Shown here in pieces: positions 7,695-44,076 of a stretch of DNA of 47,451 nucleotides. The notes beneath the pieces are model-generated. The model did not search any database. It had not been told where the DNA came from and was given only the letters and a program-made list of their open reading frames with translations. A program made the translations under genes and the position numbers. The stretch is taken from contig JBEKZQ010000667.1 in the NCBI GenBank assembly GCA_049509675.1, forward strand, positions 1-47,451. The letters run 5' to 3'. Numbering within the stretch: position 1 is the stretch's first letter; every line of letters begins with the position of its first letter. This DNA is from Thermoguttaceae bacterium (lineage in GTDB: Bacteria; Planctomycetota; Planctomycetia; Pirellulales; Thermoguttaceae).

Positions 7695-9977
<2,283 letters not shown>

Positions 9978-11319: not shown

Positions 11320-12851
11320 CCACCGCCGAACGAGAAATCCGCATCATCCGCAAACCGGCCGAACTCCGCGCCGCCAAGGGCGACGACGGGGGCGACGTTT
11401 TTTCGGGCTACGTCTTCGAGTGGGACGCCCGCAGCGACGACCTGGGCGGCTTCGTCGAAACCATCAAGCGCGGGGCGGCCGCCAAGTGGCTGGCCAAACC
11501 GACGCGGAACCTCTTTGCCATCCTCGACCACAGCAAGGAGGTCCGCAATGTGCTGGGCGACATGGAGACCGGCACGCTGAAGCTCTTTGAGGACGATCGC
11601 GGGCTGGGTTTTGTGATCCACGCCGGCCCGACGACGGCCGCCAAGGATGCCGCGGTGGTCGTGGGCCGCAACCGCGTGGGCATGAGCTTCGCCTTCATCT
11701 GCGGCCGGCAGGACTGGACCACGCTGCCCGACGGCTCCCGCCTGCGGACCATCAGCGAATTCAAGGACCTGGACGACATCTCGATTGTCGTCGATGCCGC
11801 GTACAAGTCCTCCGACGTGACCGTGGCCAAGCGCTCGCTGGAGGAGGCGCTCGCCATCGAGAAGCGGACCGCCGCCGAAGCGGCGACCCAAAAAGTGGAA
11901 ACAGAAAAACGCGCGGCTGCCGACGCGGCCGCCCAAACCAAGAAGCAGAGGGAGATCGAAGACATGGAGAAGCGACCGAGCGTGGATTACCTGAAGCGGC
12001 AATTGGACCTGGCGGATCTGGAGGCCCGCTGCTATGGCAATTACCCCGAGCGCCGCGACGAAGAGCAGCCCAAGCACGGGCCGGACGCCGCCGAGGCCCA
12101 CCGGGCCACGCGGGAGACGCTCCGCGCCAAGGAGAATTCTGGCCTGCCCTCGCGGGCCCTGGAACTGAAGGCGGCCGCCGCGCACCAAAAAGCGGCCGAG
12201 TCGGCCAAGACCGAGGGCAAGACGGCCGCCGCCGATTTCCACACCAAGGCCGCCGCCATGCACGACGCGGCCGCCAGCGACCAGTACGCCGCCAATTTTT
12301 CCGATGCCATGCAGATGCGGGGCCGGGGACTGTCCCAACTTTCGTTCGACGAAAGTGGGACTGTCCCCTTCGGCCTCGAAACTCGAACCAACCAAGGAGA
12401 TGCGATGTCGTTGACCGAACAGATTGAAGCCCGTTTCAACCCCAACCATGACGACAAGGGCCGTTTCGACTCGGCCGAGGGCGCGAGCAAGGCCGCCGAG
12501 AAGGCCACGAAATCGGCCGAGAAGGCCAGCAAGCACGCCGCCGGATCCAAAAGCGCCTCGGCGCACGACCGGGCCGCCGACGCCCACGAGGCGGCGCACG
12601 ACGCGCACAAGGTGGCCGAGGCGCACCACAAGGCCCTGGCCGCCTACCACAAGGGCGCAGGACACGCCGACAAGGCCAAGGAGCACCTGGCCGCCGCCAA
12701 GATGCACGCCGCCAAGGCCGAGGCCCACCAGGCGGCCGAGGAAGGCCGCGCCTTCCCCAGGAACCCCTACGTCGAGCAGGCCGAATACGCCGACCCGGCC
12801 GGCGCCGGCACGGGCACGGCCGCGGCCGGCGAAGCCGCCGCCACGGCCTGA
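11316..12851 (+). CDS. Prohead protease, HK97 family (S78/U35), with a coiled-coil, His/Ala/Lys-rich scaffold-like C-terminal half
   Basis: N-terminal domain AILDHS...GMSFAF (His and Ser of HK97-type proteases). C-terminal half is helical and low-complexity. Position is right for a protease-scaffold gene. Confidence 0.85.
   Translation: MTTAEREIRIIRKPAELRAAKGDDGGDVFSGYVFEWDARSDDLGGFVETIKRGAAAKWLAKPTRNLFAILDHSKEVRNVLGDMETGTLKLFEDDRGLGFVIHAGPTTAAKDAAVVVGRNRVGMSFAFICGRQDWTTLPDGSRLRTISEFKDLDDISIVVDAAYKSSDVTVAKRSLEEALAIEKRTAAEAATQKVETEKRAAADAAAQTKKQREIEDMEKRPSVDYLKRQLDLADLEARCYGNYPERRDEEQPKHGPDAAEAHRATRETLRAKENSGLPSRALELKAAAAHQKAAESAKTEGKTAAADFHTKAAAMHDAAASDQYAANFSDAMQMRGRGLSQLSFDESGTVPFGLETRTNQGDAMSLTEQIEARFNPNHDDKGRFDSAEGASKAAEKATKSAEKASKHAAGSKSASAHDRAADAHEAAHDAHKVAEAHHKALAAYHKGAGHADKAKEHLAAAKMHAAKAEAHQAAEEGRAFPRNPYVEQAEYADPAGAGTGTAAAGEAAATA
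12325..12368. repeat. 44-bp palindromic element (variant A), in frame inside the protease gene
   Basis: ggggactgtcccaactttcgttcgacgaaagtgggactgtcccc, translated GLSQLSFDESGTVP. Related copies at 34407-34450 and 43857-43900. Confidence 0.9.
12405..12851 (+). CDS. Candidate nested in-frame scaffold protein (lambda C/Nu3-like arrangement)
   Basis: Internal ATG at 12405 preceded by AAGGAG (12394-12399), just after the palindromic element. Product MSLTEQIEARFNPNHDDKGRF... is helical and His/Ala/Lys-rich. Confidence 0.4.
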   Translation: MSLTEQIEARFNPNHDDKGRFDSAEGASKAAEKATKSAEKASKHAAGSKSASAHDRAADAHEAAHDAHKVAEAHHKALAAYHKGAGHADKAKEHLAAAKMHAAKAEAHQAAEEGRAFPRNPYVEQAEYADPAGAGTGTAAAGEAAATA

Positions 12852-14069: not shown

Positions 14070-14115
14070 AGCGTGGAGCGTTTTTCGCCCTACGCCCCAC
14101 GGCCCACGCCCCACG
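14064..14115. repeat. Inverted tandem-repeat hairpin, GTGGGGC/GCCCCAC family
   Basis: Left arm gcgtgaagcgtggagcg. Right arm cgccctacgccccacggcccacgccccacg. Confidence 0.85.
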
Positions 14116-22943: not shown

Positions 22944-23230
22944 CGCTGCGCATGGCGGCGCGGGCCGGAATTTTGGACGTCGACCGCTGGCTGGAAACGA
23001 TCGCGCCGGAGCGGCTCGACGAATGGGAAATTTTCCAGCGGATCGAGCCGGACCCGCTCGATCGGCTGCGGGAGGTGCTGAAGATGGGTTTCGCCCTGCT
23101 GGCCGCCGGCCTGGGCATATCGAAGGTAACGCCGGAGTTTTTCGATCCGGTGAAGCCGGAAGAGGCGGCCCCGGTCGGCGCCCGCGAAGCGGCCGGAATG
23201 CTGCGGAGGAGCGCGGGGCGTGAACCGTGA
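22916..23230 (+). CDS. -1 frame extension of the tail assembly chaperone (gpT-like part of a G-T fusion)
   Basis: No stop from 22916 in the -1 frame: LRKDARRRLALRMAARAGILDVDRWLETIAPERLDEW... Confidence 0.6.
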   Translation, partial: LRKDARRRLALRMAARAGILDVDRWLETIAPERLDEWEIFQRIEPDPLDRLREVLKMGFALLAAGLGISKVTPEFFDPVKPEEAAPVGAREAAGMLRRSAGREP

Positions 23231-23321
23231 AGCGTGGACCGTGGAGCGGGAAATCGTGGGTCGGGGGCCGTGGACCGTGAAGCGAACGATCGCCCCACGG
23301 TCCACGCCCCACGCCCCACGG
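23214..23321. repeat. Inverted tandem-repeat hairpin, GTGGGGC/GCCCCAC family, followed by a (TAATCCC)n arm at 23329-23360
   Basis: Long G-arm 23214-23285, C-arm 23291-23321. The TAATCCC array ends 3 nt before the ATG at 23364. Confidence 0.85.
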
Positions 23322-23363
23322 TTCTGATTCCTAATCCCTAATCCCTAATCGCTAATTCCTCCC

Positions 23364-34342: not shown

Positions 34343-35698
34343 ATGAACATGCACGATCAGGAGCAATCGGCACGGAGGATTTGGAGTCGAGAGTCGGAGA
34401 GGGCAAAGGGGACAGTCCCAGTTTCGTCGAACGAAACTTGGGACAGTCCCCGCGAACTTTGGCCCGATGCGCGGCTGAGCGACGCCATCAACTGCTTCTT
34501 GGAGCGGCAGCGGCGGCGCGGCAACAAGCCGCGGACCATGGACGATTACCGCCATGCCCTGTGGGCCTACGTCCGCTACGCCGGCGGCGACTTTCCGGTA
34601 CGCGAGCTGAGGCGCGACGATCCGGTGAACTTCCTGGCCTGGCTGTCAGAGCAACGGATCGCGAACCACAAGCCGCACACGCTGCCCGCCGAATTTTCCA
34701 CGCCGGCCATCACACGGTTTTGCGATCCGAAGTCGGCCCCGGAGACCATGCCCGAGAAGGGGCTGCGCGAGGAGCACACGCTGGGGCACGTGATGCGGCA
34801 GGTCTTGCCGTTCTTCCGCTGGCTGCAGAGCCAGGGCGTGGGGCTGGACTGCGAGATCCCGTCCGACGAAAAGCCCTGCCTGGCCCTCCCCCCGCCGATC
34901 GCGCCGGAGCTCGAGGACGTCTTGGGCTGGTGGGTCCACGCGCTCACGGCCCCGGGCCTGGCGATGGTCGTCGCCGGCCGACCCGGCGGCGACGGCCCGC
35001 GTCTGCGGCCGATCGGCCGGGCGCTGCGCCGCCGGGCCGTGCTGACGCAAGCCTACTGCCTCTTGACCGGCATGCGGCTGGGCGAACTGCTGGCGGCCCG
35101 CCTGGTCGATTGCCAGGGGGCATGGCTCTTGATCCGCGAATCGAAAACCAACGCCCCCAGAATCATCTACCAGAACCCGCAGGCCCTGGGGATCGCGGCC
35201 GCATTGCGGCGGCCCGACTCGGGGCAACTGGAGTTGTTTTGCGATCCCGAGCCGGGGCCCTTGGATCGGGTCTGCGGCTGGGCGTACAGCGAGTGTTATT
35301 GGTGCGCCATCACGCGCGGGCTGGGGCTGCCTCAGAAGAAGCCGCACCAGGCCCTGCGAAGAGCCTGCTCGAACTGGATGCTCTCGCCAGGCGCCGTGCC
35401 GCCGGGCATCGACGGCATCGCCGCGCAGCTCCGCGCGATCGAGTCGGCGCAACTGGGGCATGGCGGCGGGGTGATCGAAAAGTTTTACATGGACGTGCTG
35501 ATGCGGATTCCGGCGGTGCTGGACCGCTTCCTCCTGCCGGACCTGCCGCCGCAACTTTGGATCTGGCCGGCGGCGATCGCGGCCGACTGCTCGCGCCCGG
35601 AACGGCTCTACGAGCAGTGGCGGCGGATCGTGGGCTCCGGCGGCGATCGCCGCGGGCGGCGGCGGGCGCGGCTGGCCGCGCGGGCCGGGGCCGAGTGA
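34343..35698 (+). CDS. int: Tyrosine recombinase / phage integrase (Int1)
   Basis: TGMRLGEL (Arg), ESKTN (Lys), HQALRRAC (His-x-x-Arg), LGHGGG (His), KFYMD (Tyr). N-terminal SAM-like LSDAINCFLERQRRRGNKPRTMDDYRHALWAYV. Confidence 0.85.
   Translation: MNMHDQEQSARRIWSRESERAKGTVPVSSNETWDSPRELWPDARLSDAINCFLERQRRRGNKPRTMDDYRHALWAYVRYAGGDFPVRELRRDDPVNFLAWLSEQRIANHKPHTLPAEFSTPAITRFCDPKSAPETMPEKGLREEHTLGHVMRQVLPFFRWLQSQGVGLDCEIPSDEKPCLALPPPIAPELEDVLGWWVHALTAPGLAMVVAGRPGGDGPRLRPIGRALRRRAVLTQAYCLLTGMRLGELLAARLVDCQGAWLLIRESKTNAPRIIYQNPQALGIAAALRRPDSGQLELFCDPEPGPLDRVCGWAYSECYWCAITRGLGLPQKKPHQALRRACSNWMLSPGAVPPGIDGIAAQLRAIESAQLGHGGGVIEKFYMDVLMRIPAVLDRFLLPDLPPQLWIWPAAIAADCSRPERLYEQWRRIVGSGGDRRGRRRARLAARAGAE
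34407..34450. repeat. 44-bp palindromic element (variant B), in frame in the integrase N-terminal tail
   Basis: ggggacagtcccagtttcgtcgaacgaaacttgggacagtcccc, translated GTVPVSSNETWDSP. Confidence 0.9.
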
Positions 35699-35990: not shown

Positions 35991-36120
35991 CGCCGGGCAG
36001 CGCAGAGAGAACCTGGCCTGGGTCCTGGAAGCAGGCGGGCCGCTTGGAGTGTGTCCGCCCTCTGCGCTGCTCGATGGGCTTGGCTGGCGAGAACAGGCGA
36101 ACAGGTGAGGAGGTGAACAG

Positions 36121-36468
36121 GTGAAGGCACAACTTAGGGTCCGGGCGAACCTGATGGTGGAATTGGAGGCCGATCAGCAGAAGGACCTGTTCCGGCTGCT
36201 GGCCAGCGCGCAGGAGGTCTTCGGCGAAGTGCGGTGCGGAAAATGCAAATCCAGCGAGCTAATCTTTCGCGCGCGGAAGAATTCGCAAGGCAACGAGTTT
36301 TTTGAGCTGGTCTGTTCGCGCTGCCGGGCCGTGCTGCAACTGGGCGTGCATAAGGAGGGCGGGACCCTCTTTCCCCGCCGCCACGCGGACAAGGAAGGCG
36401 GCGAAAAGGAGTGGCTGCCCGATAACGGCTGGATGCGCTGGGACGCGGAAACGGAAAGGATGGTCTGA
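36121..36468 (+). CDS. Zinc-ribbon protein of unknown function
   Basis: Two CxxC pairs (CGKCKS ... CSRCRA). GTG at 36121 or ATG at 36154. Confidence 0.45.
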   Translation: MKAQLRVRANLMVELEADQQKDLFRLLASAQEVFGEVRCGKCKSSELIFRARKNSQGNEFFELVCSRCRAVLQLGVHKEGGTLFPRRHADKEGGEKEWLPDNGWMRWDAETERMV

Positions 36469-36683: not shown

Positions 36684-38018
36684 ATGGCGAAGAAACAAAT
36701 CGACCCGGGCCCACTGGAACACATCTGGCGGGGCTCGGAGGCCGACGAGGCGGCGGTCAGGCGTTACGCCGCCATCAAATTCTGCGAGCGCGTGGAAGTG
36801 CTCAATCGCCTGCTGCTGACCACCGAGGCGCGAAAGGCCCACCTCTCGGTGCTGCTGTGGCTGCACGCGGCGGACGCCATGTCGGTGCCGGTGGAGGTCG
36901 ACGCGGCCGCCATCGGCGACTCGGCCTCGGTCCGCCTGGGGCAGCGTGCGGTCCAGAGCGCGATCAAGTTCTGGGCCGACCTCGGCATCTTGATTTTGGA
37001 GCCGCGGTACGATAGGAATGGGAGACGCCTGCCTCGCTGCGCACGACTGGTCTGGGAGGCCGTTCTCGCAGTCGCGGGTCAAGCTGGCGCGGCCGTGCAT
37101 CAGCTTCCCAGCGCGGGGCAGATGGTAGCCGAGGACGAGGGCCGGCCGGCCGTGGCCGGCCCTCGTCATTTGGCCGGTCAAAGCGGGCGCGACTCGGCCC
37201 GCGCGGACCAGTATAACGGGCCGTTTGGGGCCGCCGAAGAGCAGTCGTTTTCGATGCCACCCGAAGGTGGAGACCTTGGCGCACAGCCGCCGGACCCTGG
37301 CGCACAAAATTTACCCGAACGAGGGGACATTGGCGCACCTGTGCGCCACCCTGGCGCACACGTGCGCCAGCCTGGCGCACCCACGTGCAACCTTTCCATC
37401 CGCAAGGGGGATACTGGCGCACAAAACGACCTGCTCCACGTGGCGCATGCCTGGAGATCGTGGACGCGCGTGCGCGCGGCCGCGCACGGTCTTCAGTCTG
37501 AAGAGTCTGAAGACGTCGTCGTCGACAGAGATCAGATCCGGAGAGCCCGGCGCACAGAAGTGCGGAATCTGGCCGCCGAGGCGGCCACAATCGTCCACAT
37601 GCGGCTCACCGATCCGCAGGTCCACCGCACGCTCACCGCCGATGCCCTCGCGGCCTTGCTGCTCTTCGATCGCGCGTGGCTGATCGAGTCGGCGCGAAAG
37701 GTCGGCGCGCAGATGCGCGGGGGCGACGTGCGGAAGCCTTTGGGCCTGTTGCAGGCCGTGCTGATGGAGGCCACCTGCGAGCGCGGCGGCATGGAGGCGA
37801 TCGCCGGCAGGGCCGAGTGGAAGAGCGCTTTCGCGCAGGTGATGACGCCGCTGGAACTGCACGCCGAGCGGCACTATCCGCCGCCGGCCTCTCCAGCGCC
37901 GCCATCTCCGCCGCCGGCCGAGCGGCCGGACACGCCGGAGGAAATCGCGGAGCTCAAGCGGGCGATCAAAGAACAGCGCGACCACCTGCGGCGGACCGCC
38001 GCGGCCAGGCCGCCGTAG
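36684..38018 (+). CDS. Putative replication initiator (lambda O-like organisation: iterons inside the gene)
   Basis: N-terminal winged-helix-like region. Central low-complexity segment encoded by the iteron cluster at 37277-37422. No helicase/primase motifs. Confidence 0.45.
   Translation: MAKKQIDPGPLEHIWRGSEADEAAVRRYAAIKFCERVEVLNRLLLTTEARKAHLSVLLWLHAADAMSVPVEVDAAAIGDSASVRLGQRAVQSAIKFWADLGILILEPRYDRNGRRLPRCARLVWEAVLAVAGQAGAAVHQLPSAGQMVAEDEGRPAVAGPRHLAGQSGRDSARADQYNGPFGAAEEQSFSMPPEGGDLGAQPPDPGAQNLPERGDIGAPVRHPGAHVRQPGAPTCNLSIRKGDTGAQNDLLHVAHAWRSWTRVRAAAHGLQSEESEDVVVDRDQIRRARRTEVRNLAAEAATIVHMRLTDPQVHRTLTADALAALLLFDRAWLIESARKVGAQMRGGDVRKPLGLLQAVLMEATCERGGMEAIAGRAEWKSAFAQVMTPLELHAERHYPPPASPAPPSPPPAERPDTPEEIAELKRAIKEQRDHLRRTAAARPP
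37277..37422. promoter_or_regulatory. Iteron cluster / candidate origin: 8 copies of TGGCGCAC (6 direct, 2 inverted)
   Basis: Direct copies start at 37277, 37298, 37331, 37352, 37373, 37415 (spacings 21, 33, 21, 21, 42 nt). Inverted GTGCGCCA at 37341 and 37362 create 18-bp palindromes. Confidence 0.6.
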
Positions 38019-38182
38019 CTAAGCAAGGTCGACGCAGGCCGGCGGGCTCGTAGCTCCGCCGGCCGACGCCCCGCGGATCGAAGCCGTCTCCGCGCCGCAT
38101 ACCCTGGCGGCGCGGGGACGGGGGGCGGGGCGGGGACAGAGCAGGTGATTTTTGAGCAGGTGAACAGGTGAAACGCAATGGG

Positions 38183-38227
38183 GCCGCGTAGCGGCCGTTG
38201 ATGATAGCCGTGGGTTTCAACCCACGG
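38183..38227 (-). repeat. REP/MITE-like unit A' (solo inverted copy)
   Basis: gccgcgtagcggccgttgatgatagccgtgggtttcaacccacgg. Confidence 0.85.
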
Positions 38228-38249
38228 ACAATGAAGGAGGCCAAAAGTC

Positions 38250-38660
38250 ATGAAAAGGGGAGGCGTATTTCGCAAGCGGCCGCTGCCGGCGGCCGAGGTG
38301 GGCGGCGTGAAGCGTGGAGCGGGGACCGTGGATCGTGGGGCGACCGCACGCCGCCGCCGGCCGTCGGGCGGCCTGGCCCGACTGAAAGCCAAGACATTGC
38401 CCATGCGCAAATCGCAGGCGGCGGCCGAGCAGGACCTGGCCCGCTGGGCATTGCACAAGCGATGGGATGTCGTGCAGTCGGCCTATATCGATGGCAGGCC
38501 GGTAGCCGGCAGTGAGACGACACCGCCCAAACGTGAAACGAAAGGGGCAAAATCTGAAACGAAAGGGGCAAAATCTGAAACGGTAGCCGTGGCCGAGGAC
38601 CAAGGCGGCAGCGCGTGCGCGGCCCGGATCGAGCGCCAAAAGGTGAGGACGCAAACATGA
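38250..38660 (+). CDS. Hypothetical protein sharing its first 32 aa with ParB
   Basis: GAAGGAGG 8 nt upstream of the ATG. MKRGGVFRKRPLPAAEVGGVKRGAGTVDRGAT matches the ParB N-terminus. Contains the 21-bp tandem repeat. Confidence 0.55.
   Translation: MKRGGVFRKRPLPAAEVGGVKRGAGTVDRGATARRRRPSGGLARLKAKTLPMRKSQAAAEQDLARWALHKRWDVVQSAYIDGRPVAGSETTPPKRETKGAKSETKGAKSETVAVAEDQGGSACAARIERQKVRTQT
38534..38583 (+). repeat. 21-bp tandem repeat x2.4 (tgaaacgaaaggggcaaaatc)
   Basis: Units at 38534-38554 and 38555-38575, partial unit 38576-38583. Encodes ETKGAKS twice. Confidence 0.9.
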
Positions 38661-38902
38661 GCGTGCCGGTGGAAACGATCTGTGCCGAGCGGCTGGAGTC
38701 CTGGAAACAGCGGCTTATCGAAAACCACTCCACGCCGGCGCTGCTGATGGGCGTGGGGCATGACGAACATGCGGGCGAATTGCACCTGGTCGTGTGCGAG
38801 GAGCTCTCGCTGGAGGATCTCCAAGCACTGACGTGTTTTCTCTACCAGAAACTCGTGGTGGACAAGTGCCTGGCGGTGGCCGCGGAGCATGGCGATGGCT
38901 GA
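38657..38902 (+). CDS. Hypothetical protein (81 aa)
   Basis: ATG overlaps the upstream stop (ATGA). MSVPVETICAERLESWKQRLIENHSTPALLMGVGHDEHAGELHLVVCEE... Confidence 0.5.
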   Translation: MSVPVETICAERLESWKQRLIENHSTPALLMGVGHDEHAGELHLVVCEELSLEDLQALTCFLYQKLVVDKCLAVAAEHGDG

Positions 38903-39080
38903 GCCGTTCGAGGTTCACCGGGGAGACTACCTGCCATGTCCGCCGGCTGATTTGGATCGGCGCGTGAAATGGCCGCCGCTGGAGCGCGGCCTGCGTGAAG
39001 TGCGTTTACTTTTCAAGAAGGATGCCAAGAACCATGAAATCACGATCGGTGTTTCGGAAACGACCGTTGCCGGCGGCTGA
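38889..39080 (+). CDS. Hypothetical small protein; overlaps both neighbours
   Basis: ATG overlaps the upstream gene by 14 nt. The 3' end overlaps the parB start by 47 nt in another frame. Confidence 0.3.
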   Translation: MAMAEPFEVHRGDYLPCPPADLDRRVKWPPLERGLREVRLLFKKDAKNHEITIGVSETTVAGG

Positions 39081-41055
39081 GGTGGGCGGCGTGAAGCGTG
39101 GAGCGGGGACCGTGGATCGTGGGGCGACGAAAGGCGCGCCGCGAGCCGTCGGCACGGGAACGCAGACGCTGGGCGGCGCGCTGGCGGACCCGGACGCGGA
39201 CGGCACGCTCAGCGGCGCGGCGTGGCCGTCGATGGCCAAGGCCATGCGGACGGCCCTGGCCGAGAAGCTCACGAGGATCTACGACATGCCGGTGCCGTCG
39301 CACGTCGGCGCGTTCTGCGCCCAGGCGGTCGCGGCGATCGGCGCGGACGAAGCCCTCACCGCCGCGCAGGCCGCGCTGGCGATCCAGTACGTCCAGCAGT
39401 ACTTGCGGGAGGATCTCAGATCGGAAACTCCGGATCGCGAAACCAAAACTTTCTCCGCCCGCGCGCCCGACGCGAAGGCGGCTCGGGCCGCGGCGGCCGG
39501 ACTGCTGGAGGCCGCCGGCGAAGCCGGTGGCACGCACGCTGCGCCCGAGCGCGAGATCCCGCTGGCGGCGATCGCCGACAGCCCCTACCAGCTCCGCGAG
39601 GCCGGCGACGCGGAGCCGGACGAGGACCTGCAGGGCCTGCGCGACACGCTCCTGAGCCACGGCCTGCTGCAGGCGGTGGTCGTGCGGCCGATCGGCGACC
39701 CGAGCCGCGGCCGCTACGAACTGCTGGCCGGGCACCGCCGCTGCGCCGCCGCCAGGCTGGCCGGCTGGACCGCCATCCGGGCCCGCATCGTGGAGGCCGA
39801 CGACGGCCAGGCCGAGGAGATCGTGGTGATCGAGAACCTGCTGCGGAAGGACCTCTCGGCCATCGAGGAGGCCCGCGGCTTCCGCGCGATCCTCAGCCGG
39901 CCCGGCGCGCCGACCCAGGAGGCTCTGGCGGCCAGGCTGGGGCTCAGCCAGGGCCACATCAGCAACCGCCTGCGATTGTTGCGGCTGCCGAAGCCGTTCC
40001 AGGAGGCGGTCATTTCGGGCGAAATATCGGCCTTCCAGGCCCGCGACCTGGTGCGCGTGGCCGACATGCCGGCGGTGGTCGAGGAGATCCTCGATCGCCA
40101 CAAGGACATGAAAAAATGGCATCCGGGCAGCACCGTCGCCGACGTCCTGAGCCTGGAAGAGGGCGGCATCAATGACTACATCGACGATGGCACGCGGCCC
40201 ATGGGCGGGACGGTGTACATCACCGAAATCGGCAGAGCGTGCCCCATTTTCGCGCCGACGGAAGAGCAGCGGCAGAAGCTCGACATCCGCGAGTTCCCCG
40301 CCGGCCGCGGCAGCAAGAAGACCGAGGAGCGGGCCTGCAACGTGAAGCTCTGGGACGAGCTGCAGGAGGCGCACCGCGCCGCCCTGATCGCCCGCCGCAA
40401 GCAGCGGCAGGACGGCGCCGGCAAGGCCGGCGGCGCCCCGGGCAATGGCCGGCCGCTCACCGCCGCGGAGCAGAAGCAGGCGGCCGCGGATGAAAAGGCC
40501 CGCAAGGCCAAGACCCGCGAGCAGCTCGCCCGCCGCCGCAAGTCGCTGCTGGTGCAGCGGCTCAAGCACCTGGTCGCGGGCCGCGTGCTGGACCCGGCCA
40601 CGACGGACGAGGAACTGATCGAACTGCTTTCGATTGCGGCCCTCAAGGGCTGGGCCGAAGGCTACAAGGCCCGCGACGTCGATAAAGCGCTCACGAGGCT
40701 CAAGGGCGCTTCCGTCCGCGAACGGGCGCAGCGCCTGCTGGCCGAGTGCTTTTGGAACTCGCACGATGGCCGGCCGGCGGAAATCGTGTGGGAGAACTCC
40801 GGCCAGGTCCAAAGGGTCGCGCGGATTTTGGGCCTGGATCCGGTGGCCGCCTGGAAGGCGGACCAGCTCGGGCCGCTCACGGCCGCCTGGTGGGGCGCGC
40901 ACGAGAAGAGCGAACTGGCGGCCATCGCGCAGACCAGGGGGCTCTGTGTGAGCCCCGATACGAAGAAGTCGGCCCTCATAAGCTGGCTCTCAGCCCGATC
41001 GCTCCCGCCGCCGCCGGGGCTGGCCCTGGGCAAGAAAGGCGATCGCCGATGCTGA
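39034..41055 (+). CDS. parB: ParB/Spo0J-family protein (ParB N-terminal domain + HTH), long C-terminal extension
   Basis: LLQAVVVRPIGD...YELLAGHRRCAAARLAGW (GxRR box), VIENLLRKDLSAIEEA, HTH TQEALAARLGLSQGHISNRLRLLRLP. Start supported by synonymous-only divergence of the shared leader. Confidence 0.8.
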   Translation: MKSRSVFRKRPLPAAEVGGVKRGAGTVDRGATKGAPRAVGTGTQTLGGALADPDADGTLSGAAWPSMAKAMRTALAEKLTRIYDMPVPSHVGAFCAQAVAAIGADEALTAAQAALAIQYVQQYLREDLRSETPDRETKTFSARAPDAKAARAAAAGLLEAAGEAGGTHAAPEREIPLAAIADSPYQLREAGDAEPDEDLQGLRDTLLSHGLLQAVVVRPIGDPSRGRYELLAGHRRCAAARLAGWTAIRARIVEADDGQAEEIVVIENLLRKDLSAIEEARGFRAILSRPGAPTQEALAARLGLSQGHISNRLRLLRLPKPFQEAVISGEISAFQARDLVRVADMPAVVEEILDRHKDMKKWHPGSTVADVLSLEEGGINDYIDDGTRPMGGTVYITEIGRACPIFAPTEEQRQKLDIREFPAGRGSKKTEERACNVKLWDELQEAHRAALIARRKQRQDGAGKAGGAPGNGRPLTAAEQKQAAADEKARKAKTREQLARRRKSLLVQRLKHLVAGRVLDPATTDEELIELLSIAALKGWAEGYKARDVDKALTRLKGASVRERAQRLLAECFWNSHDGRPAEIVWENSGQVQRVARILGLDPVAAWKADQLGPLTAAWWGAHEKSELAAIAQTRGLCVSPDTKKSALISWLSARSLPPPPGLALGKKGDRRC

Positions 41056-41567: not shown

Positions 41568-42797
41568 ATGCGGATCGCATTTTGGAAGCGAGAGGAAGAG
41601 ACAGATCACCACGAACCACACGAATCACGCGAATCGGGCGCGGCACTGGCCGGGCCGGCGGCGCCGGACAGTACCAATATAATTTCAGCGCCCAACTGCG
41701 CACAAAGCCAGGCGGGCCGTCGGCTGTCGGAGGTTGTGACCCAGTTCTTGGCCCGGCTGGCGGAACTGGGTCGGTCGCCGCGGACCATCAGCGATTACCG
41801 CAGCGCGCTCTGGCTGCTCTTCGAGCATCTCGGTGCGGACCCGGCCATCGAGGCGCTACCCAAAAACCTGCCGACGCGATTCACGGCCTGGCTGCGCAGT
41901 ACTGCGGCGGCGCCGTGGCAGCCGGGGACGCTGCCCGGGGGCTTCGCGCCGGCGGAGGTGGCCCGCTTCCTGGAGACGCCCTCGACGCCGCAGACGCGGC
42001 GCAAGGGGGGCAAACGCGAGCCGCACACGATTGGGCACCAGTTGCGGGGCTGCATGCCCGTATTCAAGCTGCTGGGGCTGGATTGCGAGATCCCCCAAAA
42101 AATCGCGCCTAACCTGGCGTTGCCGCCGGCCGCGGTCCCGGACCGGCACCAGATCGGCCAATGGTGGACGACCGTGCTGTGGAGCAGCCGGTCGACCGTG
42201 GCCGCCGGCCTGCGCCGTCGCGTAGTCCTGGCCCAGGCGATCGTGGTGCTGGTCGGGCTGCGCCTGGGCGAACTGTTGCGGGCCCGGGCCGGCGACGTGG
42301 AAGGAAACTGGCTGCTCGTGCGGCAGAGCAAGACCAACCGCCCGCGGATCGTCTATCTATGCCCGGCGGCACTAGGCCTGGTCCGGGCCTTGCACGAGCC
42401 GGCCGCCGACGAACGCGATTTGCTTGCCGGCAGGCGGCTTTTCGCGGAGCGGTTGATCGGCTGGCCGTTCTCGCGCTCGGCCTGGCTGGACTTGGTCCGC
42501 GAATCCGGGTTGCGGGAAAAGCGCCCGCACCAGGCCATGCGGCAATACTGCTGCACCCGGCTCTTCAATATCAATCCCACGGCCGAGGCGACGCAGCTCG
42601 GCCACGGGATCGGCGTCGTGCCCAAGTATTACCTGGACGTGCTGCGGTTACTGCCGGACATCATGCGCGACTGGCATTGGCCGGCGATCACCATGCGGGC
42701 CAAGGGACGGCGGTTCGCGTGGCCGGAGCGCATCGCGGCCGGCGACGAGCATCCCCGGCGGCTGTACCGGGAATTTAGGCGGATCGTGATGGCGTGA
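41568..42797 (+). CDS. Tyrosine recombinase (Int2), paralogue of Int1
   Basis: VGLRLGELL, QSKTN, HQAMRQYC, LGHGIG, KYYLD. Shares LDCEIP...LALPP and the SAM-like RTISDYRSALWLLFEHLG with Int1. Confidence 0.8.
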   Translation: MRIAFWKREEETDHHEPHESRESGAALAGPAAPDSTNIISAPNCAQSQAGRRLSEVVTQFLARLAELGRSPRTISDYRSALWLLFEHLGADPAIEALPKNLPTRFTAWLRSTAAAPWQPGTLPGGFAPAEVARFLETPSTPQTRRKGGKREPHTIGHQLRGCMPVFKLLGLDCEIPQKIAPNLALPPAAVPDRHQIGQWWTTVLWSSRSTVAAGLRRRVVLAQAIVVLVGLRLGELLRARAGDVEGNWLLVRQSKTNRPRIVYLCPAALGLVRALHEPAADERDLLAGRRLFAERLIGWPFSRSAWLDLVRESGLREKRPHQAMRQYCCTRLFNINPTAEATQLGHGIGVVPKYYLDVLRLLPDIMRDWHWPAITMRAKGRRFAWPERIAAGDEHPRRLYREFRRIVMA

Positions 42798-43137: not shown

Positions 43138-44076
43138 TTATGCCGCGGCTGACGACGCCAGCCGAGCATGGAGCCTTGCCTCAAGCTCGCGCTGCTCTTC
43201 GATGGGCAGCCGGCTGATGACGCGATCCAGACGCACTAGCCGCGGTTGTACAGGCTTGTCTTTCCTGGGGCGCAAGGCGGTCACCTGATCGGCGATCGCC
43301 TTGGCAGTCAGATGCCGCTCGAGGATTTGCCGCATCAGCCCCCTGGCCAGATCGCCGAGACCCGGGCGGACGTCCCATTGCTCCGTCACCGGATCGCGCT
43401 TCACGAGCGGGCAAAGCGCGCGAACCGTGGAAAGCGGCAGGAGCTCCACGGTATCGGCCCCCAAGAGTCGCGCGACCCAATAACAGGCGATTACGCGATT
43501 GACCCGCGCTGCCTCGCCGGTGATGCCCAGGTCGGCCAGGGCCTTTCTGAGTTGCTGGACGGCCGCCGGCCGATCGGGCTGCTGTGAGACCCACTGCCAG
43601 GCCAGGCAGCCCAGCCGCAACGCGCGGCGGGTGGCCTGGCAATCGTACTTGGTCCACTCGCCGAGGACCTCCTCGATCGTCAGTTGCCGCGGCTCGCGGG
43701 TTTTGGCCAGGGCCTCGGCCAGCGTGGCGCGGGACTGGGGGACAGTGGGGCGTGGGGCGTGGGGCGTGGGGCGTGAAGACGCCCCACGGTCCACGACCGC
43801 CTCGCGAATCACGGCGGCAGCCGGCGGGGTGTCGGTCGCGCCGGCTGCGGCGGCAAGGGGGACAGTCCCAGTTTCGTTGAACGAAACTTGGGACAGTCCC
43901 CGGCACTCCCGCGCCGCCGCGGCGGCAGTTGTGGCGCCTGCGGCCGCGGTCGGCACAGTGGGGCCGGGCATGACGGCCGGACCGGGTGGGAGTGGAGGCT
44001 GTGGATCGGTGGGCGCGGCGACCGGAAAACCATGCCGGAACAGGATATTGTGGATCGACTCGATCGACTCGATCAT
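43138..44076 (-). CDS. Hypothetical protein; the N-terminal third contains two in-frame repeat elements, so the true start is uncertain
   Basis: C-terminal ~200 aa look globular (LTIEEVLGEWTKYDCQATRRALRLGCLAWQW...). The 44-bp palindrome and a GTGGGGC hairpin (43744-43797) lie in frame. Confidence 0.45.
   Translation of the reverse strand: MIESIESIHNILFRHGFPVAAPTDPQPPLPPGPAVMPGPTVPTAAAGATTAAAAARECRGLSQVSFNETGTVPLAAAAGATDTPPAAAVIREAVVDRGASSRPTPHAPRPTVPQSRATLAEALAKTREPRQLTIEEVLGEWTKYDCQATRRALRLGCLAWQWVSQQPDRPAAVQQLRKALADLGITGEAARVNRVIACYWVARLLGADTVELLPLSTVRALCPLVKRDPVTEQWDVRPGLGDLARGLMRQILERHLTAKAIADQVTALRPRKDKPVQPRLVRLDRVISRLPIEEQRELEARLHARLASSAAA
43857..43900. repeat. 44-bp palindromic element (variant B'), in frame in ORF 43138-44076
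   Basis: ggggacagtcccagtttcgttgaacgaaacttgggacagtcccc. One substitution relative to 34407-34450. Confidence 0.9.

Follow-up and report, generated by a model that had tools for sequence, protein, structure and literature searches.

ParB proteins encoded away from any ParA partner are a common occurrence. In a survey from 2025, these orphan ParBs were enriched on plasmids and prophages and lacked the ParA-binding motif [LFI]G[KR]G[LFI], a loss that goes together with the absence of parA (PMC12704722). Positively charged, disordered N-termini are also known as generic docking tags for ParA/MinD ATPases, and the initial ~30 residues in partners of these ATPases have been proposed to act as a 'luggage tag' (PMC10241942). 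Here we analyse an orphan parB (39034-41055) and the open reading frame (ORF) that lies upstream of it (38250-38660, hereafter ORF38250) in a contig of 47,451 nucleotides, the window, which is a tailed-phage genome (47.5 kb, 66% GC, HK97-type capsid). Both genes start with a copy of the same segment, coding for a short basic peptide followed by a linker made of heptad repeats. We consider it fairly likely that this arrangement is a partial 5' duplication of parB caused by recombination of related phages, in which the tag and the heptad linker were copied and the upstream ORF was born as a young chimera.

When set beside the systems described above, the phage ParB has the marks of an orphan: it is homologous to ParB CTPases, is encoded on a phage and outside a parAB operon, and is devoid of the ParA-binding motif. 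From a ParABS system it retains the ParB_N and helix-turn-helix (HTH) domains, while an encoded ParA and an N-terminal ParA-binding motif are missing. As in the partners of ParA/MinD ATPases, its extreme N-terminus is a basic peptide predicted to be disordered.

The segment common to both genes is a two-copy direct repeat of 112 nt (38233-38344 and 39017-39128), 85% identical and with copies 784 nt apart, found both by repeat search and by ungapped alignment. In each copy, a 17-nt ribosome-binding region leads into an ATG and 32 codons. The original prediction had proposed that ORF38250 exists alongside ParB and shares its first 32 codons, and both points are borne out. A third copy is absent, the 32-nt core occurring at just two sites of the window (0 expected by chance). 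The features of the locus are given below, L006 being the closest relative of this region, a partial contig of 3.8 kb.

38182 to 38228, no strand assigned: REP-like element with hairpin CCGTGGGTTTCAACCCACGG, directly upstream of copy 1; it also precedes parB in L006.
38233 to 38344, forward strand: repeat copy 1, with Shine-Dalgarno region GAAGGAGG, ATG 38250 and 32 codons; codons 1-15 and the DNA before them agree with the start of L006 parB.
38250 to 38660, forward strand: chimeric ORF of 136 aa, the N-terminal 32 aa of ParB plus a 104-aa tail without relatives; its stop overlaps the next start (ATGA).
38309 to 38343, forward strand: heptad array in copy 1, (CGTGGRN)x5, codons 21-31 of the module; one hairpin arm, without the complementary arm.
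38345 to 39016, forward strand: inter-repeat stretch of 672 nt, unique to this phage; together with one repeat copy it makes up the 784-nt insert relative to L006.
38657 to 38902, forward strand: 81-aa ORF (ORF38657), without relatives; its coding signal is strong (0.52).
38889 to 39080, forward strand: 63-aa ORF, overlapping the parB start by its final 47 nt in a different frame.
39017 to 39128, forward strand: repeat copy 2, with Shine-Dalgarno region GAAGGATG, ATG 39034 and 32 codons, running on into the parB body.
39034 to 41055, forward strand: orphan parB, 673 aa, with a predicted disordered tail (aa 1-61), a helical region (63-130), the ParB_N CTPase fold and HTH (172-362) and a family-specific C-terminal domain (363-660).
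39093 to 39127, forward strand: heptad array in copy 2, the surrounding 50 nt being identical to copy 1.

The module peptides of the two copies are MKRGGVFRKRPLPAAEVGGVKRGAGTVDRGAT and MKSRSVFRKRPLPAAEVGGVKRGAGTVDRGAT. Copy 1 has a perfect AAGGAGG 9 nt ahead of its ATG and copy 2 a weaker AAGGATG. Codons 3-5 differ non-synonymously (RGG vs SRS), while a codon-level alignment of codons 6-32 gives exactly the seven differences that had been listed in the original prediction, 7/7 of them synonymous. The probability of such an outcome is ~2.2e-4, given that 30% of possible single changes are synonymous, and the pattern is seen in this frame alone, of six. These changes are not spread evenly: they affect 6/10 codons in 6-15 vs 0/16 in 16-31 (Fisher P = 9e-4), the latter half being identical at 50/50 nt. 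The two halves are also of a different nature. Codons 1-15 encode a basic peptide, xSVFRK(K/R)PLP, with a net charge of ~+5 (MKSRSVFRKRPLP has five basic and no acidic residues), and codons 16-32 are a heptad array, (CGTGGRN)5, the identical half reading as five tandem heptads (GAAGCGT GGAGCGG GGACCGT GGATCGT GGGGCGA).

Comparison with L006 allows the changes to be polarised. In this relative, parB starts right after the REP-like hairpin, at the position that copy 1 occupies in the window, and the 784-bp insert is not there. In a three-way alignment, the start of L006 parB is matched by copy 1 in its codons 1-15 and ribosome-binding region, and by the REP-like element ahead of it, with 31/31 identical nucleotides in codons 7-16 (TTTCGCAAGCGGCCGCTGCCGGCGGCCGAGG); judged from this alignment, copy 1 is the apparent ancestral 5' end of parB. 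Beyond codon 32 only copy 2 continues as L006 parB (87% nt identity in codons 33-100), and copy 1 enters unrelated sequence. Five of the six 5'-half differences between copies lie on the copy-2 side, and codon 6 differs in all three sequences, being the one (synonymous) difference between copy 1 and L006 in the conserved stretch of codons 6-16. Copy 2 differs synonymously from L006 at 6/11 codons in the 5' half vs 7/56 in the parB body (P = 0.005), suggesting that its 5' half may come from a more distant lineage, or may be changing fast under the overlapping ORF. A 6-nt indel and 5 substitutions separate the heptad halves of both window copies from that of L006. Towards the left, synteny is not recognisable: the upstream genes of the window and of L006 are not detectably homologous, and the upstream ORFs of the window show no similarity to the parB neighbourhoods of three other relatives (L001-L003). 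The insert-less, L006-type 5' end coexists with the window type in one peat run (depth 16 vs 25), so that both types have had the opportunity to recombine.

Duplication by recombination would then have proceeded as follows. In the ancestral state, as in L006, parB would have stood directly after the REP-like hairpin. The ~784 bp that now follow codon 32 would have brought the tail without relatives, a pair of small ORFs and another, further diverged start-region copy. Copy 1 would have kept the old parB ribosome-binding site and tag, now running into foreign sequence, and copy 2 would have restored the tag to ParB, with the 50-nt identical heptad tract representing the crossover or a gene-conversion tract. 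The differences would have accrued as synonymous changes only, while both 5' halves were ParB N-termini in separate lineages, and the heptads would be read through as a Gly/Arg-rich linker. The synonymous-only pattern is thus explained by the divergence and later joining of two selected ParB N-termini, and is not evidence of selection on ORF38250, which would most likely be a young by-product of the fusion. If translated from its strong Shine-Dalgarno, it would nonetheless display the same tag and could titrate a partner, competing with ParB for it should the tag dock one.

Searches of 1.84 billion representative proteins, where the hits were repetitive giant proteins only, and of 5.8 billion clusters gave no true relative of the ORF38250 tail; ORF38657 had no relatives in our searches, and the insert DNA has no paralogue. 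An AlphaFold2 (AF2) model from the single sequence, of low confidence (mean pLDDT 61), predicts ORF38250 to be mostly disordered with one helix (aa 56-81). Within the ORF, a 21-nt tandem repeat (GAAACGAAAGGGGCAAAATCT, ~2.4 copies at 38534-38583) encodes ETKGAKS repeats and falls in a patch where GC content is low. The TGA stop of the 63-aa ORF (39078-39080) is created by a synonymous change specific to copy 2, GCC to GCT in parB codon 15.

Several observations weigh against recombination having produced the duplicate. L006 is the sole sequence with which changes were polarised, and this exact phage was not found in an insert-less form, the only joint that skips the insert being of L006 type. 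No single simple event obviously yields both the junction at codon 32 and the identical heptad tracts. The identity over 50 nt could arise from constraint on the DNA instead; given the near-saturation of the 5' half beside it, the identical heptad half suits a crossover or gene-conversion tract, and nucleotide constraint suits it less, L006 not sharing the tract. Last, ORF38250 looks expressible: of the six frames, its own gives the tail the highest score (+0.09 vs -0.58 for the off-frames, with 0.43 +/- 0.32 for genes), residues 31-82 weakly match phrog_31924 (E = 1.6e-3), AAGGAGG lies 9 nt before the ATG, and the stop overlaps the ORF38657 start (ATGA). The tagged protein may therefore have a function. 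With the ribosome-binding site inherited from parB, the score in its own frame, the ATGA overlap and the weak PHROG match, we think that it is probably translated.

The ParB itself is a solid member of its family. As had been predicted for 39034-41055, it has a GxRR box, here GHRR, and an HTH, and the Pfam domains are ParB_N (aa 173-269, 2e-16) and HTH_ParB (aa 272-356, 4.6e-17). The nearest solved structures are Noc, chromosomal ParB/Spo0J and KorB, with PDB sequence matches to Noc and ParB of ~1e-29. The C-terminal domain has no Foldseek match among the top 50 PDB matches listed, all of which align to the ParB core. AF2 predicts residues 1-61 with pLDDT ~30, placing the module in a tail modelled as disordered. 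ParB is probably a CTP (cytidine triphosphate)-dependent DNA clamp that works without a phage ParA.

ParB homologues with an overall identity of only 42-53% have the motif xSVFRK(K/R)PL at their extreme N-terminus. Their N-termini read MTSKVFRKKPL (P0002), MSKLNVRKKPLP (P0003), ..HHSAFRKKPAP (P0004), MARTVFRKKPL (P0005), ..KSRSVFRRQPL (P0006) and MKARAVFRKRPLPAAE (P0030). More distant members of the family start with MATATKxxRKRK.., and many have an NG(H/Q/K) motif further along. The half encoded by heptads is missing from these homologues, except for the close relative P0030/L006, which starts MKARAVFRKRPLPAAEAGKRGAGTVKRGAT. In L001-L003 the motif is confined to ParB, and no window protein other than ORF38250 and ParB carries it. 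This conservation across homologous sequences gives good support to ATG 39034 as the start of ParB translation and to selection acting on residues ~1-15. GTG 39112, the start chosen by the database gene caller (P0001, 647 aa), was rejected as the sole start, since the motif upstream is conserved in the homologues and in P0030; the caller chose it because the 63-aa ORF overlaps the parB start. In-frame parB codon 17, GTG 39082, lies one nt after the TGA (39078-39080) of that ORF, and a coupled restart there is a candidate route to a ParB isoform without the conserved basic motif. Searches of viral contigs with the N-terminal 179 aa gave no relatives, and an alignment of the window protein with P0030 found no match in metagenome contigs. 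The family alignment retrieved mostly generic chromosomal ParBs from genome contigs, which were used only for comparison of host-type N-termini.

The original prediction had read the synonymous pattern as selection on the peptide. This holds for at least the first 13-15 residues of ParB, conserved as they are among its homologues. The pattern does not demonstrate it for the upstream copy, given that five of the six 5'-half changes sit on the copy-2 side. Within the conserved stretch copy 1 is a single synonymous difference away from L006, too little to carry evidence of selection since the fusion.

The absence of a Walker-type ParA, also predicted, is confirmed: the deviant Walker A motif KGGxxK[ST] is absent from the six frames of the window (and from L001-L004, L006, L087 and L088), and no ParA-type Pfam family was found in the ~50 ORF products scanned in the window or among the parB-neighbour genes of relatives. 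This situation had been presented as remarkable, and it turns out to be a known and ordinary one: orphan ParBs are common (PMC12704722), the five related phage contigs have no ParA near parB either, and the gene belongs to an orphan ParB family of Planctomycete phages. The likeness of the module to N-terminal peptides that stimulate ParA did not survive scrutiny. Neither ParB, nor ORF38250, nor any of the 29 database proteins retrieved contains the canonical motif [LFI]G[KR]G[LFI], while Planctomycete chromosomal ParBs carry RLGRGLEALLG and have parA (KGGVGKT) just upstream. Hence, as far as sequence can tell, the module peptide does not mimic the ParA-interacting peptide of host ParBs. A non-canonical contact with a host ATPase is possible by analogy with other partners, and the peptide is probably a docking tag for some partner.

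A search for parS-like palindromes had been suggested as a check. The canonical parS (TGTTNCACGTGAAACA) was discarded as a candidate site, with no occurrence in the window at up to 3 mismatches. The window does hold three copies (0.01 expected) of a 19-bp AT-rich palindrome, AGTTTCGT-N-GAACGAAACT, at 12338-12356, 34420-34438 and 43870-43888. Its half-sites (xGTTTCxx) resemble those of parS and of Noc-binding sites, spaced 3 bp wider, making it a candidate binding site for the orphan ParB or for another regulator. All three copies are intragenic, they are absent from the related loci fetched, and nothing links them to ParB.

The two DNA families found within and ahead of the module are dispersed along the genome. 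The 16-nt heptad motif has 29 matches in the window vs 1.8 expected, and ~19 heptad arrays are present (for example at 14092, 15855, 16945, 19726, 22308, 23215-23324, 28625, 35727, 35911 and 46093). Most of the other arrays lie at gene ends as palindromic hairpins, (CGTGGGG)n-loop-(CCCCACG)n, some followed by T-runs, and these intergenic hairpins probably act as terminators; the module carries the G-rich arm only. Heptad hairpins contain no stop codons, hence they inflate naive ORF calls where genes start. The portal gene contains one array (8943-8977), and at 3735-3830 of L006 a full heptad hairpin is in frame within parB, in a second disordered linker (..ENRETGTVDREATARPTPHAPRPTLDAPPPTPHA), where the contig ends. 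By analogy with Rickettsia palindromic elements, this suggests that heptad repeats may invade disordered regions of coding genes. The REP-like hairpin is present 8 times, with 20-nt cores at 73, 12887, 13001, 38208, 41416, 42830, 42942 and 47402. Copies in opposite orientation bracket 41568-42797, and others are found near both ends of the window. In peat metagenomes its depth is ~200x vs ~9x for the phage; at about 10 to 30 times phage depth, it is a repeat common to the community or the host.

We weighed the duplication by recombination against other explanations of the shared module. It is unlikely, in our view, that ParB and ORF38250 bear a functional docking tag in common with which to engage the same partner, a host ParA/Soj or a ParA/MinD-type ATPase, with ORF38250 serving as co-factor, decoy or regulator. 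The peptide does have the looks of such a tag, being basic, N-terminal and predicted disordered, in line with ParA/MinD partner tags (PMC10241942); its motif is conserved across the ParB family, candidate hosts encode ParA, and ORF38250 has the stronger Shine-Dalgarno and is coupled translationally to downstream genes. But the canonical motif is lacking from the whole family when host ParBs have LGRGL, and motif loss accompanies parA loss (PMC12704722); no relative has the tag on a second protein; copy 1, one synonymous codon (codon 6) away from L006, provides no evidence of selection; and the tail is without relatives and predicted mostly disordered. Along the same lines, SVFRK(K/R)PL as a portable tag that hijacks a host ParA/MinD-type ATPase or some other machine, the second tagged protein tuning it or competing for it, strikes us as quite doubtful.

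We regard as improbable a regulatory cassette of DNA or RNA, in which the repeat is a shared operator, translational operator or leader for both ORFs and the identity of the peptide is secondary. The ribosome-binding region is indeed within the repeat, not even a synonymous difference is seen over the 3' 50 nt, and heptads at many gene boundaries make a heptad-binding factor conceivable. Nevertheless, differences in the 5' half respect the reading frame, being synonymous in one frame of six, and the heptad tract, with an indel and 5 substitutions relative to L006, is under no strong constraint across lineages. Structured RNA in the module was rejected, with no signal above shuffled controls (z = 0.2-1.3), and neither a sigma-70-like promoter nor an intrinsic terminator was found in 37900-39300. 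A degenerate DNA pattern of the module gave no match in genome contigs. Phage proteins that are otherwise unrelated can share N-terminal tags, as do the internal proteins of T4, and this phage encodes an S78 prohead protease; a sorting or degradation signal on both proteins (capsid targeting cut by the protease, or a degron) is still a very remote prospect. parB and ORF38250 lie in the replication/lysogeny region, by integrase-like genes and not in the head module, the motif is on no other protein of the window, and we recognised neither a cleavage motif nor a consensus for a degron. A Tat or Sec signal peptide was also rejected, the module being without a hydrophobic stretch as read from its sequence. 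To an assembly artefact, a chimeric contig joining two strains at the repeat, we give almost no credence: De Bruijn contigs do break at the 50-nt identical tract and an L006-type strain is in the same sample, yet the identical two-copy arrangement is found in three independent JGI assemblies (L004 and L005 among them), and a 794-nt contig covering 38315-39108 turns up in two additional peat runs (X1 and X2), with a depth equal to that of its flanks. Logan contigs are unable to reveal rare deletion variants.

The rest of the genome places parB in a phage from peat metagenomes, with terminase, portal, capsid and integrase genes in the Pfam scans. The structural genes encode TerS, TerL, portal, a MuF-like protein, the S78 prohead protease, capsid and tail proteins, and the replication/lysogeny region contains parB, two tyrosine-recombinase-like genes and a Cro/CI-type HTH. 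The closest ParB relative is annotated to a metagenome-assembled genome of Thermoguttaceae (Planctomycetes). None of the RNA sequencing runs searched for the parB-start region contained it. The recombinase-like gene at 34280-35698 matches phrog_1 (integrase, E = 2e-6); the one at 41568-42797 scores 26.0 bits for Pfam Phage_integrase, just under the curated cutoff of 27.1, and is bracketed by REP-like repeats and a 115-nt direct repeat (41353, 42879). A 444-aa ORF without family match (36684-38018), which immediately precedes the parB operon, holds iteron-like repeats, (A/C)CCTGGCGCAC, at 37259-37560, and looks like a replication-initiator gene with an embedded origin, by analogy with the lambda O gene. 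The L006 gene at this position is also internally repeated, its homology to the window gene being undetectable. Upstream of gene 36121 and of gene 38250 there are tandem 8-mers (GAACAGGT/GAGGAGGT, at 36090-36125 and 38153-38172), which may be an operator or promoter element common to the two. Related Planctomycete phage contigs with this ParB family repeatedly encode a CsrA homologue (L001 12674-12856, L087 24-200, L088 12034-12216), of which there is none among the window proteins scanned.

If ORF38250 is a by-product of recombination, the locus would illustrate how recombination seeded by short dispersed phage repeats leads to duplicated gene starts and chimeric ORFs, and how paralogous segments that differ only synonymously can have inherited this pattern from their divergence as orthologues, in which case it does not reveal selection on both copies. 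If the peptide were instead a portable tag, it would show tag swapping between cargo proteins taking place in nature. At the level of the family, the lead is that large orphan ParBs of Planctomycete phages share a conserved, non-canonical basic N-terminal peptide, whose partner would tell what the ParBs of phages without ParA do.

Among known systems, the phage protein is closest to orphan ParBs of the Noc and KorB type (PMC12704722), with which it shares the CTPase fold, the GxRR box, the HTH, and the lack of an adjacent parA and of the ParA-binding motif. It differs from them in its much larger size (673 aa), with the helical region (aa 63-130) and a C-terminal domain of ~300 aa. Its extreme N-terminal peptide seems, like that of Noc, to have been put to a new use; as a further difference, SVFRK(K/R)PL is neither a ParA-binding motif nor an obvious amphipathic membrane helix, and the canonical parS is absent. 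The module resembles the tags of ParA/MinD partners such as ParB, McdB and MinE (PMC10241942) in being short, basic, predicted disordered, N-terminal, separable and present on two proteins. In contrast to these tags, and in a comparison made by sequence only, it has no cognate ATPase in the phage or in the five related contigs, and it lacks the canonical motif.

Coding genes can take up in-frame insertions of Rickettsia palindromic elements and comparable repeats. The heptads are likewise a dispersed palindromic family that is also found within ORFs, where it is read as extra peptide in disordered regions; they differ in being built of 7-nt units that otherwise form terminator-like hairpins, in the single arm of the module, and in a mobility that is only putative. 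The closest parallel for the insert is mosaic recombination of phages, which places foreign gene cassettes between conserved blocks. Here too there is a block of small ORFs, of atypical codon usage and without relatives, and homology to L006 starts and stops abruptly. Unlike the usual mosaic cassettes, the insertion lies inside the 5' end of a gene, is bounded by a 112-bp direct repeat, and regenerates an intact gene together with a chimeric ORF.

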